From Escherichia coli (GTDB taxonomy: Bacteria; Pseudomonadota; Gammaproteobacteria; Enterobacterales; Enterobacteriaceae), in the NCBI RefSeq assembly GCF_017348835.2, contig NZ_CP071375.1: a stretch of DNA of 64,000 nucleotides, one strand, 5' to 3'. The notes below the pieces were generated by a model. The model saw nothing but the letters and a program-made list of their open reading frames with translations. It was not told where the DNA came from and did not search any database. Each line of letters opens with the position of its first letter. Position 1 is the stretch's first letter. The translations under genes and the position numbers were made by a program. Positions 4,028 to 25,448 of the stretch are shown here, in pieces.

Positions 4028-5008
4028 ATGGCTTTTACACCTTTTCCTCCCCGTCAGCCTACGGCTTCTGCCCGTTTACCGCTGACGCTGATGACGCTTG
4101 ATGACTGGGCGCTTGCCACCATTACTGGCGCGGACAGCGAAAAATATATGCAGGGCCAGGTGACAGCAGATGTCAGCCAGATGACAGAAAATCAGCACCT
4201 GCTCGCCGCCCATTGCGACGCCAAAGGTAAAATGTGGAGCAATTTACGTCTGTTCCGCGACGGCGATGGCTTTGCGTGGATTGAACGGCGCAGCGTGCGT
4301 GAATCGCAGCTGATTGAACTGAAAAAATATGCGGTGTTCTCTAAAGTGACCATCGCGCCAGACGACGAGCGTGTGCTGCTTGGTGTTGCCGGTTTTCAGG
4401 CGCGCGCCGCGCTGGCCAATCTCTTTAGTGAACTGCCTTCGAAAGAAAAACAGGTAGTTAAAGAAGGCGCGACCACTTTGCTATGGTTTGAACACCCGGC
4501 AGAACGTTTCCTGATCGTAACCGATGAAGCTACTGCCAATATGCTGACCGATAAACTGCGCGGTGAAGCGGAACTGAACAATAGCCAACAGTGGCTGGCA
4601 TTAAACATTGAAGCGGGTTTCCCGGTGATTGATGCCGCCAACAGCGGGCAGTTTATCCCACAGGCGACCAATCTCCAGGCGCTGGGCGGTATCAGCTTTA
4701 AGAAAGGATGTTATACCGGACAAGAGATGGTGGCGCGAGCAAAATTCCGTGGTGCCAATAAACGTGCGCTCTGGTTGCTGGCAGGTAGCGCCAGCCGACT
4801 GCCGGAAGCTGGTGAAGACTTAGAGCTGAAAATGGGCGAGAACTGGCGTCGTACCGGTACGGTGCTGGCTGCGGTAAAACTGGAAGATGGTCAGGTCGTG
4901 GTACAGGTCGTCATGAATAACGATATGGAACCGGACAGCATCTTCCGCGTACGCGACGATGCGAATACACTGCATATCGAGCCGCTGCCGTATTCGCTCG
5001 AAGAGTAA
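4028..5008 (+). CDS. ygfZ: tRNA-modifying / Fe-S repair folate-binding protein YgfZ
   Basis: 326 aa ORF, GcvT-like fold sequence. Confidence 0.9.
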
Positions 5009-20477: not shown

Positions 20478-21137
20478 TCATTTCACAATGGTTTTGACAC
20501 CGTCAGGTGTGCCAATCAGCGCAACGTCCGCGCCACGGTTAGCAAACAAGCCAACAGTCACCACGCCAGGAATCGCATTTATGGCGTTTTCCATCGCTAT
20601 CGGGTCAAGGATTTCCATGCCGTGGACGTCGAGGATCACGTTGCCATTATCGGTCACCACGCCCTGACGGTATTCCGGACGACCGCCCAGTTTCACCAGC
20701 TGGCGCGCCACTGCACTACGTGCCATCGGGATAACTTCTACTGGCAGCGGGAATTTACCCAGAATATCAACCTGCTTGGAAGCGTCTGCAATACAGATAA
20801 ATTTTTCTGCAACCGAAGCAATGATTTTTTCACGGGTCAGCGCCGCGCCGCCGCCTTTGATCATTTGCATGTGGCCGTTGATTTCATCTGCGCCATCAAC
20901 GTAGATGCCAAGGCTGTCGACTTCGTTGAGATCAAAAACGTGAATGCCGAGGCTTTTCAGTTTTTCAGTGGAAGCATCTGAACTGGAAACGGCCCCTTCA
21001 ATCTGGCCTTTCATTGTACCGAGCGCGTCAATAAAGTGTGCGGCGGTGGAACCTGTACCTACACCAACAATGGTGCCGGGCTGAACATACTGAAGTGCCG
21101 CCCATCCTACTGCTTTTTTCAATTCATCCTGCGTCAT
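20478..21137 (-). CDS. rpiA: ribose-5-phosphate isomerase A
   Basis: 219 aa from ATG 21137 ([15 protein letters not shown]...); ORF track has a 24-codon extension. Confidence 0.95.
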
Positions 21138-21192
21138 GATCGTTTCGCCTGTGGTATGAAATTTCACACGCATTATATACAAAAAAAGCGAT

Positions 21193-22089
21193 TCAGACCC
21201 CGTTGGCAAGCCGCGTGGTTAACTCATCCATAAAATATCGCGCAATGGCAGGCATCCCCTTTCGCCCCGCAAATAAAGCATACAACGGTCTGGGTATGCC
21301 GCTCCACGGTGCAAACAGGCGCACCAGTTCACCGTTCACAAGCCCCTGTTTACAGGCAAATTGAGGCAATAACGCCACGCCATTCCCACCAAGTACTGCC
21401 TGCAGCATGACGCGAAGGTTATTTGACTGCAAACGCGCCTCAGGCTGCAGCGTAATCTCCTGTTCGCCATTAATTAATTGCCACTGGCTCCCGCCATTGT
21501 TCGCCAGCCGAAGGATCCCGTCGACGTGGTTAAGATCTTCAATAGCTTTCACCTGCGGATGGCGGGCCAGCCACTGAGAACTGGCAACTAAAATATCAGC
21601 CTGGGTATGTAATTTTTTATAATGCAGCGTCGAGTCCGCAAGCGCGCCGGAAGCCGTAACCAGCGCAATATCAATGCCTTCAGCGACCATATCCACCGGG
21701 CGATTAATTGCCAGCAGTTGCACCTTCGCCAGGGGCCAACGGGCGATAAACTCACTGACAAACTCACCAAACCATGTTTCAGCCATAAATACCGGCGCGC
21801 TGACGCGCAGCATTCCCTGTGGGCTTTCCTGGGCGGCCATCACCACCGCTCTAGCCCGTTCCTCCTGCGCCATCAGCGCCCGACATTCGACAGCAAACTG
21901 TTCGCCTGCCGCCGTCAGGGCCAGACGCCGCGTAGTTCGCTGAATAAGCCGTACGCCAAGGCGCTCCTCCAGTGCAGCCATTCGTCGGCTTAATACCGAT
22001 TTCGACACGCCCGCACGCAGCGCCGCCTGACTGTAGCTGCCTTCATCGGCAATCAGGGCAAAGTAGTAATAATCATTCCAGTCGATCAT
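21193..22089 (-). CDS. LysR-family transcriptional regulator, intact (K-12 carries only a fragment annotated yqfE at this site, as far as I recall)
   Basis: 298 aa; N-terminal HTH ([35 protein letters not shown]) plus substrate-binding domain; divergent from the next gene. Confidence 0.8.
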
Positions 22090-22120
22090 GATTGTTCTAT
22101 TTTCACAACAATGAAGTTCA

Positions 22121-22136
22121 ATTATGTCTATTTAAT
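22121..22136. promoter_or_regulatory. candidate LTTR box attatgtctatttaat (ATTA-N8-TAAT dyad) in divergent promoter
   Basis: Dyad with T-N11-A architecture within the 100-bp gap between the LysR gene and the azoreductase-like gene. Confidence 0.3.
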
Positions 22137-22189
22137 CATCATGTCAACAACAGTTAAACTTCTCTCATCGCAGAAACGAGAGCAAGCCC

Positions 22190-22819
22190 ATGAAAATTCT
22201 CCATATCGACAGTAGCCCAATGCTTAAGCATTCAAGTTCGCGGAAATTAAGCCAGGCGCTGGTAGAAGCGCTTTGCCAACACTTTCCTCAAGCCACAATT
22301 ATTCATCGCGACGTTGGCCTGACGCCGCCGCCCCATTTGCGTGAAGAAACCTTTCTGGCGCTTTGCGGTAAAGAAGAGTGCAAGAACGCACAAATTCAGC
22401 AGGAGGTGAATGATATCCACGCCGCTATTGATGAACTGGCATCGTGCGATGTGCTCATTATTGGCGCGCCGATGATTAATCACAGCGTTTCATCTGGCCT
22501 CAAAACCTGGATAGATCAGGTGTGTCAGGCTGGTTTAACGTTTCGTTTTAGCTCTGCAGGCGCCGTTGGGTTACTGAAGGATAAACCGACGTTTATTGTC
22601 TCGACGCGCGGCGGTATCTATTGCGATGAAGCACATCTGGCGCTGGATCATCAGGAAAGTTATCTGCAAGCCACGCTGAAATTAATGGGCATTACCAATA
22701 CACATATTTTACGTGCAGAAGGTGTCGACAAAACCCAACCGGGACGCGAACTCGCCGAGCAAAATGCATTAGCGCAAATCCCTGATCTTATTACACAAGT
22801 ATTTAATCATTACGTTTAA
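22190..22819 (+). CDS. FMN-dependent NADH azoreductase / flavodoxin-like quinone reductase family protein
   Basis: 209 aa; same architecture as AzoR (MKILHIDSSP...DVLIIGAPMINHSVSSGLKTWIDQV...TFRFSSAGAVGLL...STRGGIY). Confidence 0.7.
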   Translation: MKILHIDSSPMLKHSSSRKLSQALVEALCQHFPQATIIHRDVGLTPPPHLREETFLALCGKEECKNAQIQQEVNDIHAAIDELASCDVLIIGAPMINHSVSSGLKTWIDQVCQAGLTFRFSSAGAVGLLKDKPTFIVSTRGGIYCDEAHLALDHQESYLQATLKLMGITNTHILRAEGVDKTQPGRELAEQNALAQIPDLITQVFNHYV

Positions 22820-22835
22820 TATAAAAGGAGTTATT

Positions 22836-23096
22836 ATGTCTATTAAGCAAAATTTATTTACCGCGTTATTTCTTTGCACTCTCACAGGACATGCATTTGC
22901 AGCAACCGAGATACACAAACCGGACAATAATCTTGAACAGTTATCAAAAGTGAGCATGTCTACACACAATAGCAACCCAGCGGGCGTTGAAAGCCAAATC
23001 AAAGAGAAAGCGGAAGAGTTACAAGCCAGCAATTACTACATCAGTTCTTTCTCCGGTAAAAATTATATCCACGCTACTGTGATTTTCTATAAATAA
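22836..23096 (+). CDS. small secreted DUF1471 (BhsA/McbA/YdgH-like) protein
   Basis: 86 aa, signal peptide ending HAFA, C-terminal ...IHATVIFYK typical of the family; GGAG Shine-Dalgarno-like sequence 8 nt upstream. Confidence 0.6.
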   Translation: MSIKQNLFTALFLCTLTGHAFAATEIHKPDNNLEQLSKVSMSTHNSNPAGVESQIKEKAEELQASNYYISSFSGKNYIHATVIFYK

Positions 23097-23158
23097 TCAC
23101 TCTATTTAATGGGAGCATGGAACTGTTCTATGCTCCGCTGCCAAAATGAAATAAAAAA

Positions 23159-24484
23159 ATGAAAAAAGCTAATCTTACAGGTACGTTGGTTTGCTTTGTC
23201 GCATGTATTATTTTTTTGTCATCCGGCGATATTTTTCGTGAAAAGCCAATCGCGCTAATATGGTTCATTCGACAAAACACACTCTTTTTTACGGGAACCC
23301 TTGCGTGGTGTCTGATGACGCTGACGATGTGCTTATCGTTGCGTTCATCATGGCTTAACAAGATGCTGGGCGGTCTGGATAAAGCATGGCGATTACATAA
23401 GTGGGCAGGAATATGCGCCATCGTTTTTTCTTTCGCCCACTGGCTGGATGAAAAATTACCCCAGTTATTTGTCGCCTTTGGCTGGCTTACTCACCCTGGT
23501 AAAATTGTTGATATTAACCTGACGCCAGTACAAGAAAATTGGCTTCATGTGGGACTGTTAGCGGGTGAATGTGCAATGTTTATTATGATAGCGATGGTTT
23601 GCGTGTCTCTTAGCAAAAGAGTTCCCTATCATTTATTTCATCTTGTTCACCGTTTGTTCCCTGTCTTTTATCTGGCAATTGCCTTTCATGTGTTTACTGC
23701 TTTGTTTAAATCATATTGGTGGGAAACTCCTGCTGCGTATTTATTAATTTTAATTACTATTCCGGGCGTCTTTGTGGCTTTCATTTCGCTGCTGAAGTTA
23801 AACGGTAATAAAAGCAAGCATCAGGCCACCGTTAAAAGCATTGTTAACCATCCGGGACAAATTACCGAAGTCATACTGGAGATGGAACATCCCATCGACT
23901 ATTGTCCGGGGCAGTTTGCATTCTTAACTTTCGCACACAGTAAAGAATCTCACCCTTTTACTATCGCTTCATATGTAAAAGAGAAGAACACGTTGCGCTT
24001 TGCCATCAAAAATTTAGGGGATTATACCTCGACTCTGGCATCCTCGATACAAATCGGCCAGTCCGCCCTCGTTGAAGGGCCATGGGGAAAGTTTGATTTT
24101 ACTCTCCCTTGCTCCCGCCAGGTCTGGATAGCAGGAGGCATCGGCATTACCCCTTTTATCGCCCAGCTTGAGTATCTGAACCAGCATGGCGCGTCCCCTG
24201 TTTCTGTGGATCTCTGGTATTGCATCAGCCGAAGCGAGGATGCATGGTATGTTGATAAACTTACCTCACTTTGTGCCCAGGCCAGTGTCACACTGCATCT
24301 GCTTGATGCGCATAAAGGTGAGCGCCTACAGTCGCACTATCTTACTGATAAAATAGCAAATAAAGGTGACACCCATTTCTGGTTTTGCGGCCCACAGAGT
24401 TTTGCCAAAGCGCTCAGCAAAGGGTTATATGAAAATGGGATTGCCAGCCAAAACTTCCATTACGACCGCTTTTGTATGCGTTAA
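23159..24484 (+). CDS. NOX/ferric-reductase-type flavocytochrome (6-TM bis-heme domain fused to FAD/NAD(P)H-binding domain)
   Basis: 441 aa; His80/His94 and His164/His177 with 14/13 spacing in TM helices, HPFT FAD motif, [11 protein letters not shown](P)H motif, C-terminal FCGP. Confidence 0.7.
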
Positions 24485-24554
24485 ATGCTCTGTACCCAAC
24501 GCAAAATTGTGTCATAGTGCAGGAAAAAGCATTTACCAGGAGCAGACAACAGCA

Positions 24555-25448
24555 ATGAAACGCCCGGACTACAGAACATTACAGGCACTGGATGCGGTGA
24601 TACGTGAACGAGGATTTGAGCGCGCGGCACAAAAGCTGTGCATTACACAATCAGCCGTCTCACAGCGCATTAAGCAACTGGAAAATATGTTCGGGCAGCC
24701 GCTGTTAGTGCGTACCGTACCGCCGCGCCCAACGGAACAAGGTCAAAAACTGCTGGCACTGCTGCGCCAGGTGGAGTTGCTGGAAGAAGAGTGGCTGGGC
24801 GATGAACAAACCGGTTCGACTCCGCTGCTACTTTCACTGGCGGTCAATGCCGACAGTCTGGCGACGTGGTTGCTTCCGGCACTGGCTCCTGTGTTGGCTG
24901 ATTCGCCTATCCGCCTCAACTTGCAGGTAGAAGATGAAACCCGCACTCAGGAACGTCTGCGTCGCGGCGAAGTGGTCGGCGCGGTGAGTATTCAACATCA
25001 GGCGCTGCCGAGTTGTCTTGTCGATAAACTTGGTGCGCTCGACTATCTGTTCGTCAGCTCAAAACCGTTTGCCGAAAAATATTTCCCTAACGGCGTAACG
25101 CGTTCGGCATTACTGAAAGCACCAGTGGTCGCGTTTGACCATCTTGACGATATGCACCAGGCCTTTTTGCAGCAAAACTTCGATCTGCCTCCTGGCAGCG
25201 TACCCTGCCATATCGTTAATTCTTCAGAAGCATTCGTACAACTTGCTCGCCAGGGCACCACCTGCTGTATGATCCCGCACCTGCAAATCGAGAAAGAGCT
25301 GGCCAGCGGTGAACTGATTGACTTAACGCCTGGGCTATTTCAACGACGGATGCTCTACTGGCACCGCTTTGCTCCTGAAAGCCGCATGATGCGTAAAGTC
25401 ACTGATGCGTTACTCGATTATGGTCACAAAGTCCTTCGTCAGGATTAA
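24555..25448 (+). CDS. argP: LysR-type regulator ArgP (IciA)
   Basis: 297 aa from ATG 24555 ([28 protein letters not shown]...). Confidence 0.9.

Follow-up and report, generated by a model that had tools for sequence, protein, structure and literature searches.

Organization of the cassette between rpiA and argP

The locus described here lies within a 64,000-nucleotide stretch of Escherichia coli DNA (the window; contig NZ_CP071375.1 of assembly GCF_017348835.2), in which a four-gene cassette is found between rpiA and argP. The cassette consists of a divergent regulator gene and three genes on the plus strand, the last of which encodes a NOX-like flavocytochrome and is the subject of this analysis. 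This gene is an intact open reading frame with an ATG start that encodes 441 amino acids, and its GC content is 44%, versus 51% for the window. RefSeq names the identical protein, WP_072169412.1, a 'ferric reductase-like transmembrane domain-containing protein'. The features of the locus are as follows.

21193..22089, minus strand: divergent LysR-family regulator, the presumed regulator of the cassette (NCBIfam, RefSeq; the Salmonella counterpart is 71% identical)
22091..22112, strand not applicable: inverted repeat ATTGTT-N10-AACAAT, a candidate LysR-type binding box read from the sequence of the 100-bp divergent intergenic region
22190..22819, plus strand: first gene, a 209-residue Flavodoxin_2/FMN-dependent NADH-azoreductase-like (AzoR-like) cytoplasmic flavoreductase (NCBIfam 73 bits against a cut-off of 188; RefSeq; Pfam PF02525 in the Salmonella ortholog)
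22836..23096, plus strand: second gene, an 86-residue small secreted DUF1471 protein (YdgH/BhsA/McbA family) with a Sec signal peptide (NCBIfam BhsA 52 bits against a cut-off of 90; sequence; conserved in Salmonella)
23112..23136, plus strand: RNA hairpin before the NOX-like gene, with an 11-bp stem and no T-run (-16.5 kcal/mol, z -3.76)
23159..24484, plus strand: NOX-like gene, with a predicted six-TM bis-heme domain (about residues 1-215) and a predicted FNR-like FAD/NAD(P)H dehydrogenase domain (about residues 220-441) (open reading frame, Pfam, PDB sequence search, AlphaFold2, Foldseek)

The intergenic gaps are short (16 bp between the AzoR-like and DUF1471 genes and 62 bp between the DUF1471 and NOX-like genes), which suggests one operon, and co-transcription is assumed here from this spacing. 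The hairpin at 23112-23136 is a possible attenuator or mRNA-stability element; in Salmonella, a hairpin of unrelated sequence occupies the same gap before the NOX-like gene. The Shine-Dalgarno region of the NOX-like gene is weak. Consensus scans for promoters and terminators across positions 21900-24700 returned no more sites than expected from shuffled sequences.

Domain architecture and conserved motifs

The NOX-like protein combines a ferric reductase-type membrane domain with the elements of a flavin-dependent dehydrogenase. Searches against Pfam-A place Ferric_reduct (PF01794) at residues 45-174 (E 3.9e-14), FAD_binding_8 at residues 227-298 (E 8.7e-08), with FAD_binding_6 also found, and NAD_binding_1 at residues 324-420 (E 1e-06). 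The NOX-type NADPH domain NAD_binding_6 is not significant in Pfam (E 0.86). In NCBIfam, the C-terminal half scores only below threshold to FNR-type reductases (BenC, AntC and Hmp), and the search returned no curated equivalog for the protein. Pfam and the AlphaFold2 model account for all 441 residues, with regulatory modules and extra domains absent. The residues and motifs expected to carry the redox chemistry are listed below.

23396..23398, plus strand: His80 codon, predicted inner (cytoplasmic-side) heme ligand in TM3, equivalent to SpNOX H69 (alignment; invariant in 49/49 homologs)
23438..23440, plus strand: His94 codon, predicted outer (periplasmic-side) heme ligand in TM3, equivalent to SpNOX H83 (alignment; invariant)
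23648..23650, plus strand: His164 codon, predicted inner heme ligand in TM5, equivalent to SpNOX H129 (alignment, register counted from chain position 99; invariant)
23687..23689, plus strand: His177 codon, predicted outer heme ligand in TM5, equivalent to SpNOX H142 (alignment; invariant)
23951..23962, plus strand: HPFT, residues 265-268, predicted FAD-binding motif (H265 and P266 invariant; fits the motif H[PSA]F[TS][LIMV] of Hajjar et al., PMC5676040)
24134..24157, plus strand: GGIGITPF, residues 326-333, predicted NAD(P)H-binding glycine motif (G327, G329, P332 and F333 invariant; SpNOX has an identical AGGIGITPF)
24383..24394, plus strand: FCGP, residues 409-412, a motif conserved in the FNR family and close to the nicotinamide site (C410 and G411 invariant)
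24470..24472, plus strand: Phe438 codon, equivalent to SpNOX F397 (profile alignment with a one-residue chain-numbering offset; invariant)

In an alignment of 49 homologs that are 33-88% identical to the query, all four histidines are invariant, as are H265, P266, G327, G329, P332, C410, G411 and F438. The combined pattern of motifs, Pfam domains and conservation is far beyond chance. An earlier note on this DNA, made from the translation alone, had named the two histidine pairs (His80/His94 and His164/His177), HPFT, GGIGITPF and FCGP; a script run on the translation returned the same histidine positions, with spacings of 14 (80/94) and 13 (164/177), and placed HPFT at 265, GGIGITPF at 326 and FCGP at 409.

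Structural similarity to SpNOX and eukaryotic NOX proteins

The best solved relative of the NOX-like protein is the Streptococcus pneumoniae NOX, SpNOX (8qq7, 8qt6 and 8qta), with an E-value of ~6e-28 in a single-sequence search of the PDB; the available SpNOX structures include the F397A and F397W variants (entries 8qta and 8qq1). A profile built from the 49 homologs again ranks SpNOX first (1.5e-61), followed by NOX5 (1e-19), DUOX1 (1e-18) and the NOX2 heavy chain (4e-18), all three of which stand above most soluble FNR-family proteins. A single-sequence PDB search with the TM domain alone (residues 1-216) gave no significant match (SpNOX E 1.3), so the assignment of this domain draws on Pfam, profile and fold evidence. 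In the alignment to 8qq7_A, His80 and His94 coincide with H69 and H83, while His164 and His177, counted from chain position 99, coincide with H129 and H142. Because the SpNOX double mutants H69A-H129A and H83A-H142A abolish activity (PMC5676040), His80 and His164 should ligate the inner heme, and His94 and His177 the outer heme.

An AlphaFold2 model computed on the 49-homolog alignment (mean pLDDT 89.9, pTM 0.87) contains helices at residues 2-20, 33-59, 73-106, 123-152, 157-184 and 191-211, after which comes a beta/alpha domain. His80 and His94 fall in helix 73-106 and His164 and His177 in helix 157-184, briefly interrupted at 165-166; these positions place the histidines in TM3 and TM5. Foldseek searches of the PDB return full-length SpNOX first (8qt6, E 2e-26, TM-score 0.75/0.83, the second value normalised to the target), then human NOX5, DUOX1 and NOX2 with TM-scores of 0.54-0.68. 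The dehydrogenase domain matches SpNOX 8qq1 with a target-normalised TM-score of 0.86 and an rmsd of 2.3 A.

Together, the Pfam assignments, PDB sequence match, AlphaFold2 model and Foldseek hits support the prediction that one polypeptide chain joins a bis-histidyl membrane domain of the ferric-reductase type to an FAD/NAD(P)H domain of the FNR type. The earlier note had proposed this architecture and suggested that histidines outside the TM helices, or a C-terminal half without a dehydrogenase fold, would count against it. The six-helix model puts all four histidines in TM3 and TM5, and the C-terminal half is modelled as a beta/alpha domain with a close match in the SpNOX dehydrogenase. The comparison with SpNOX and human NOX2 and NOX5 that the same note called for also bears out its reading, with the four histidines matching the SpNOX heme ligands and both NOX5 and NOX2 significant in the profile search. 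Motifs, homology and fold likewise indicate that the protein probably binds the heme, FAD and NAD(P)H cofactors.

Relationship to characterized electron-transfer systems

SpNOX (PDB 8QQ7, 8QT6; PMC5676040, PMC11564096) resembles the NOX-like protein in its six-TM bis-heme and FNR-like domains, its histidine spacings, its HPF[TS] and AGGIGITPF motifs, its F397 counterpart of Phe438 and its lack of regulatory domains. Nonetheless, the two proteins share only ~22% identity over the structure alignment, and the NOX-like protein is ~40 residues longer, with a longer periplasmic loop between TM3 and TM4 (residues 107-122). SpNOX also lacks R38, W95, E98 and E137, which are conserved in the clade of the NOX-like protein near the outer heme, and has an asparagine in place of R38 and N84 in place of W95. 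Unlike that of SpNOX, the host is Gram-negative and has a periplasm, and the gene context is different. Separately, SpNOX may be connected with the SifR quinone regulon through SPD_0527, which is no more than a lead: NOX is not named in the regulon paper (PMC9218516), and no locus tag appears in the SpNOX paper (PMC11564096).

NOX2, NOX5 and DUOX1 share the catalytic core and heme-ligand geometry, as reflected in the profile E-values (1e-19 to 4e-18) and the significant Foldseek matches. The NOX-like protein differs from them in having a glutamate (Glu98) rather than a histidine four residues after the outer TM3 ligand, in lacking EF-hands, a peroxidase domain and a p22phox-type partner, and in fitting the generic NAD_binding_1 family rather than NAD_binding_6.

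The E. coli MsrQ (YedZ) system, which acts with Fre and MsrP, offers a further parallel, since MsrQ, too, is a ferric reductase-type (FRD) membrane protein with two hemes from which electrons reach the periplasm, and it illustrates that the acceptor can be a protein instead of O2 (PMC5676040). MsrQ is heme-only, however, and needs a separate flavin reductase or quinol, whereas Pfam assigns the NOX-like protein its own fused dehydrogenase domain; the distinction from MsrQ/YedZ drawn in the earlier note therefore stands. No molybdoenzyme (msrP-type) gene adjoins the NOX-like gene among the window open reading frames or in RefSeq.

Flavinylation-associated FRD-NAD systems show the same fusion of FRD and NAD-binding domains, and their proposed role is the reduction of extracytosolic partners with NAD(P)H (PMC8238504), and some distant homologs of the NOX-like protein are encoded beside DUF2271 and PepSY_TM genes. 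Neither the E. coli nor the Salmonella cassette contains apbE or an FMN-binding, DUF2271 or DUF3570 substrate with the [S/T]GA[S/T] motif.

Membership of the bacterial NOX family and prior knowledge

Hajjar et al. (2017) described a bacterial NOX family and the sequence features that define it (PMC5676040). Their FAD motif, H[PSA]F[TS][LIMV], is present as HPFTI at residues 265-269, and their NADPH motif as GIGITP at residues 327-332. The bis-histidyl signature, defined as two His-X12/14-His motifs on TM3 and TM5 with a separation of at least 20 residues, is found as H80-x13-H94 (helix 73-106) and H164-x12-H177 (helix 157-184), and the expected six TM helices with a C-terminal FNR-like domain are seen in the AlphaFold2 model. 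On sequence and predicted topology, the NOX-like protein thus has every feature by which these authors recognize a bacterial NOX.

The same study included and cloned an E. coli member, 'EcNOX' (UniProt L2VL28, from strain KTE10), which when overexpressed gave weaker heme spectra than SpNOX or PaNOX; no further characterisation or genomic context was given (PMC5676040). EcNOX passed the same filters for the FAD and NADPH motifs, the two bis-histidyl motifs and predicted TM helices that the NOX-like protein would pass. The only other E. coli paralog found (P0078) is 38% identical, adjoins IS66 and carries HPYT, and would therefore fail the FAD filter of Hajjar et al. For this reason, EcNOX is probably an ortholog or allele of the NOX-like gene, an argument made from the filters. 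L2VL28 was not among the returns of exact-sequence look-ups with six NOX-like alleles.

The molecular identity of the protein is already known, because the family was published in 2017 with an E. coli entry, FRD-NAD fusions were described as NAD(P)H-driven transmembrane electron carriers by Meheust et al. in 2021 (PMC8238504), and RefSeq annotates the gene routinely; the motifs and structure of the family have likewise been published. For the conserved cassette, the K-12 yqfE deletion scar and the proteobacterial cytochrome c/PepSY contexts, we found no published description (a literature search for yqfE together with pseudogene returned no papers), and these are modest additions. The NOX-like gene itself, though real, is an ordinary part of the E. 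coli accessory genome.

Genomic contexts of the wider family

A protein search recovered 5665 relatives at E <=1e-5 among 8000 candidates scored, and a genome scan confirmed at least 588 loci, mostly in Beta- and Gammaproteobacteria among the matches listed. Neighbourhoods were compared across 83 homolog loci (80 kept from the genome scan, together with L003-L005), with partners identified by targeted tblastn and Pfam scans. Many of these loci carry a divergent two-component system along with DUF1924, diheme cytochrome c (DHC) and PepSY_2 genes upstream of the NOX-like gene. DUF1924, a c-type heme protein, DHC and the periplasmic PepSY_2 were recognized with Pfam E-values of 4e-35, 4e-38 and 8e-16, respectively; each occurs in 28-32 of the 83 loci, and all three occur together in 20. 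In Neptuniibacter and Vreelandella, genes for PepSY_2, DUF2271 and a PepSY_TM-flavodoxin-FNR fusion lie downstream of the NOX-like gene, and DUF2271 is known as an extracytosolic domain that becomes flavinylated (PMC8238504). More distant homologs in enterobacteria (38-43% identity) are solitary or adjoin mobile elements. These contexts suggest that, in much of the family, the electron acceptors are periplasmic redox partners and not O2.

Proposed mechanism and electron acceptor

The reading that best joins these observations, and which we consider highly likely, is that the protein is a self-contained transmembrane electron conduit of the SpNOX type; we read it as part of a regulated envelope redox/electrophile-stress module. 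Cytoplasmic NAD(P)H would bind the NOX-like protein and give hydride to FAD bound at HPFT, with Phe438 the counterpart of SpNOX F397. Single electrons would then pass from FAD to the inner heme b (His80/His164) and from there to the outer heme b (His94/His177), on the periplasmic side, where the outer heme would reduce a periplasmic acceptor (O2, a quinone or metal, or a protein). In the form that we propose, electrons from NAD(P)H may be delivered to periplasmic oxidants such as quinones, metal chelates or a protein, and superoxide formed from O2 would be an expected in vitro and side activity rather than the purpose of the enzyme. We infer the cofactor loading, the direction of electron flow, the co-regulation of the operon and the nature of the acceptor. 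It is the gene context that leads us to favour a role in envelope redox or electrophile stress, because the cassette combines apparent LysR control, a cytoplasmic quinone/azo-reductase-like partner and a periplasmic protein of a stress family.

The residues around the outer heme bear directly on whether O2 is the acceptor. In NOX2, the outer TM3 ligand is H115, and H119, four residues later, is the histidine of the eukaryotic O2-reducing centre. NOX2 R54, an arginine on the outer part of TM2, also belongs to the O2-reducing centre. In the NOX-like family, position 98 (four residues after the outer TM3 histidine) is glutamate in 34 of the 49 homologs, lysine in seven and aspartate in three, and is histidine in none. 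R38, which is arginine in 41 of the 49, lies at the periplasmic start of TM2 in the AlphaFold2 model and is a candidate counterpart of NOX2 R54.

In a rival reading, the protein is a true NADPH oxidase, with O2 as its physiological acceptor and periplasmic or extracellular superoxide made for signalling or competition. SpNOX, the closest characterised relative, makes superoxide constitutively in vitro (PMC5676040), and the core architecture common to NOX2, NOX5 and DUOX, seen in both the profile and Foldseek searches, would suit such a function. Yet Glu98 takes the place of the O2-centre histidine, and numerous homologs have genes for periplasmic c-type cytochromes or flavinylated proteins as neighbours. 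SpNOX itself reduces cytochrome c directly, and its authors doubt that bacterial homologs have O2 as their physiological acceptor (PMC11564096). Nor is there an obvious gain for an enteric bacterium in making superoxide on purpose in its periplasm. We consider an oxidase role unlikely.

We think it quite unlikely that the protein is instead an FRE-like assimilatory ferric reductase that would serve iron uptake by reducing Fe(III) chelates in the periplasm. The names given by GenBank and UniRef submitters ('iron reductase' or 'predicted ferric reductase') and the placement of the TM domain in Pfam Ferric_reduct lean this way, as do the link of related bacterial FRD and PepSY systems to iron reduction (PMC8238504) and the presence of an S. 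pneumoniae FRD protein in a catechol-iron regulon (PMC9218516). The locus has little of the character of an iron-uptake gene, however: a Fur-box scan of the promoter region reached at most 10/19, which does not exceed the scores of shuffled sequence, regulation appears to be by the LysR protein, and no iron transporter gene is present among the neighbours (LysR, AzoR-like, DUF1471, rpiA and argP). Moreover, SpNOX shows ferric reductase activity that is very weak (kcat 0.05 per s) and was judged not physiologically relevant (PMC11564096).

Within the preferred reading of an electron conduit for envelope stress, a more specific proposal can be made for the cassette as a whole. The E. coli rclABC operon, with its layout of flavoprotein, DUF1471 protein and membrane protein, is parallel to it. 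Speculatively, the four genes may form a previously unrecognised enterobacterial envelope-protection system, in which the NOX-like protein would pass electrons to a periplasmic acceptor other than O2, the DUF1471 protein would be its adaptor or partner, and the AzoR-like enzyme would deal with the same stressor on the cytoplasmic side; we consider this version unlikely. By inspection, CxxC, CxxCH and the [S/T]GA[S/T] flavinylation motif are all missing from the DUF1471 protein, and with no recognisable redox motif a direct electron-acceptor role for it is unsupported. If correct, the proposal would provide the first physiological role for a bacterial NOX homolog and a biochemical role for a DUF1471 protein, and would parallel the cytochrome c and PepSY partners encoded beside betaproteobacterial homologs. 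The SpNOX structural paper calls for further assays of the physiological function of bacterial NOX homologs (PMC11564096).

Distribution, selection and the K-12 deletion scar

Matches to the NOX-like gene occur in 247 of 5426 complete E. coli genomes (~4.5%), always on the chromosome, and some alleles are split by IS1 or truncated. The gene is therefore dispensable, being absent from ~95% of complete genomes and disrupted in some that carry it. At this position, K-12 has only yqfE, a pseudogene. The K-12 sequence keeps the 3' end of the LysR gene (window positions 21193-21385) and a 58-bp azoR-like relic (22732-22789) and resumes at 24499; in the alignment, the retained LysR end and azoR-like relic identify the K-12 state as a deletion scar. 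Cassette-bearing E. coli and near-isogenic strains that have lost the cassette would form a tractable system for finding the acceptor and inducer of a bacterial NOX.

Beyond E. coli, the cassette is found in Salmonella enterica at a different chromosomal site, with a NOX-like protein 50% identical and LysR and AzoR-like proteins 71% identical to those described here. An Escherichia-like contig carries the cassette in the same slot, with an 88% identical NOX-like protein and without the scpA operon. When AzoR-like, DUF1471 and LysR partners were sought in the 83 distant-homolog loci, the cassette was recovered in two Salmonella loci only, and another locus, L006, matched the LysR partner alone. 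The cassette is thus specific to the Escherichia/Salmonella clade among these loci.

When E. coli alleles are compared in pairs, the NOX-like gene gives dN/dS values of 0.15-0.26; in the informative comparison, the LysR, AzoR-like and DUF1471 genes give 0.03-0.10. Selection on the NOX-like gene is purifying but somewhat relaxed. That the gene is a decaying accessory gene without current function in this strain, as its rarity (247 of 5426 complete genomes, with K-12 and most strains showing deletion scars), its several IS1-interrupted or truncated alleles, its dN/dS above that of its neighbours and its weak Shine-Dalgarno region might suggest, is highly improbable, given that the reading frame here is intact with every family-invariant residue kept, that dN/dS is well below 1, and that the four-gene cassette has remained intact across Escherichia and Salmonella though the NOX-like proteins are only 50% identical. 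Positions 21000-24600 of the window are 100% identical to the sequence of E. coli strain PE164.

Cassette remnants and composition

The rpiA-argP intergenic region of E. coli K-12 is a deletion scar left by the four-gene cassette. This follows from two remnants: the K-12 pseudogene yqfE is the leftover 3' part of the cassette LysR gene, and 58 bp of the azoR-like gene also survive there as a relic.

Stretches matching between the window and K-12:
Window 21193-21385, 22732-22789 and 24499 onward
K-12 locus (L002) 1882-2197

The cassette is heterogeneous in composition, since the DUF1471 and NOX-like genes (window 22836-24484) have GC contents of 38% and 44%, respectively, both well under the window average of 51%, whereas the LysR gene reaches 56%.

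Candidate regulatory elements

Two intergenic regions of the cassette carry potential regulatory features, and the second has a counterpart in Salmonella that differs in sequence.

Window 22091-22112, ATTGTT-N10-AACAAT, an inverted repeat that lies within the divergent promoter region directly upstream of the LysR start codon
Window 23112-23136, stable hairpin between the DUF1471 and NOX-like genes (-16.5 kcal/mol, z -3.8)
Salmonella locus (L003) about 4956-4982, hairpin in the same gap

The inverted repeat is a candidate binding site for the LysR-type regulator. Neither hairpin, in the E. coli window or in Salmonella, is followed by a T-run, and the element may therefore act as an attenuator or in mRNA stability.

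Disrupted alleles and a second paralog

Several E. coli strains carry an IS1 insertion within the cassette (strain PKF11, locus L088; matches H22, H23, H26 and H43). The azoR-like gene is truncated in these strains and the NOX-like gene is reduced to its dehydrogenase half, and this half carries its own annotation as a 'FAD-binding oxidoreductase'. A rare second NOX-like paralog, P0078, also occurs in E. coli; it has HPYT in place of HPFT, and its gene adjoins IS66 elements with no cassette nearby.

L005 (contig DBITNA010000026.1) 5001-6308, gene for P0078, 38% identical

Neighbours of distant homologs

In Rhodocyclales and Burkholderiales loci, the NOX-like gene is preceded by genes for a DUF1924 c-type heme protein, a diheme cytochrome c (DHC) and a PepSY_2 protein, which adjoin a divergent two-component system. 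Searches of 83 loci found the full trio in 20, and this neighbourhood suggests c-type cytochromes as periplasmic acceptors. A different set lies downstream in Neptuniibacter and Vreelandella, including DUF2271, a flavinylated periplasmic domain.

Some 1.5 kb 5' of the NOX-like gene in L016, L024, L053 and further loci: DUF1924, DHC and PepSY_2 genes
L038, L062 and L083, 3' of the NOX-like gene: PepSY_2, DUF2271 and a PepSY_TM-flavodoxin-FNR fusion

The argP boundary

The 90%-identity protein cluster that holds the NOX-like protein, with P0001 and P0002, also contains ArgP proteins from many genera. This co-clustering is a database artefact without biological meaning: the NOX-like and ArgP proteins are linked by the 371-aa representative P0002, whose reading frame presumably extends from the NOX-like gene into argP. 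A mechanical ORF in the window (24366-25448) also runs over the 3' end of the NOX-like gene, whereas argP is annotated as starting at 24555.
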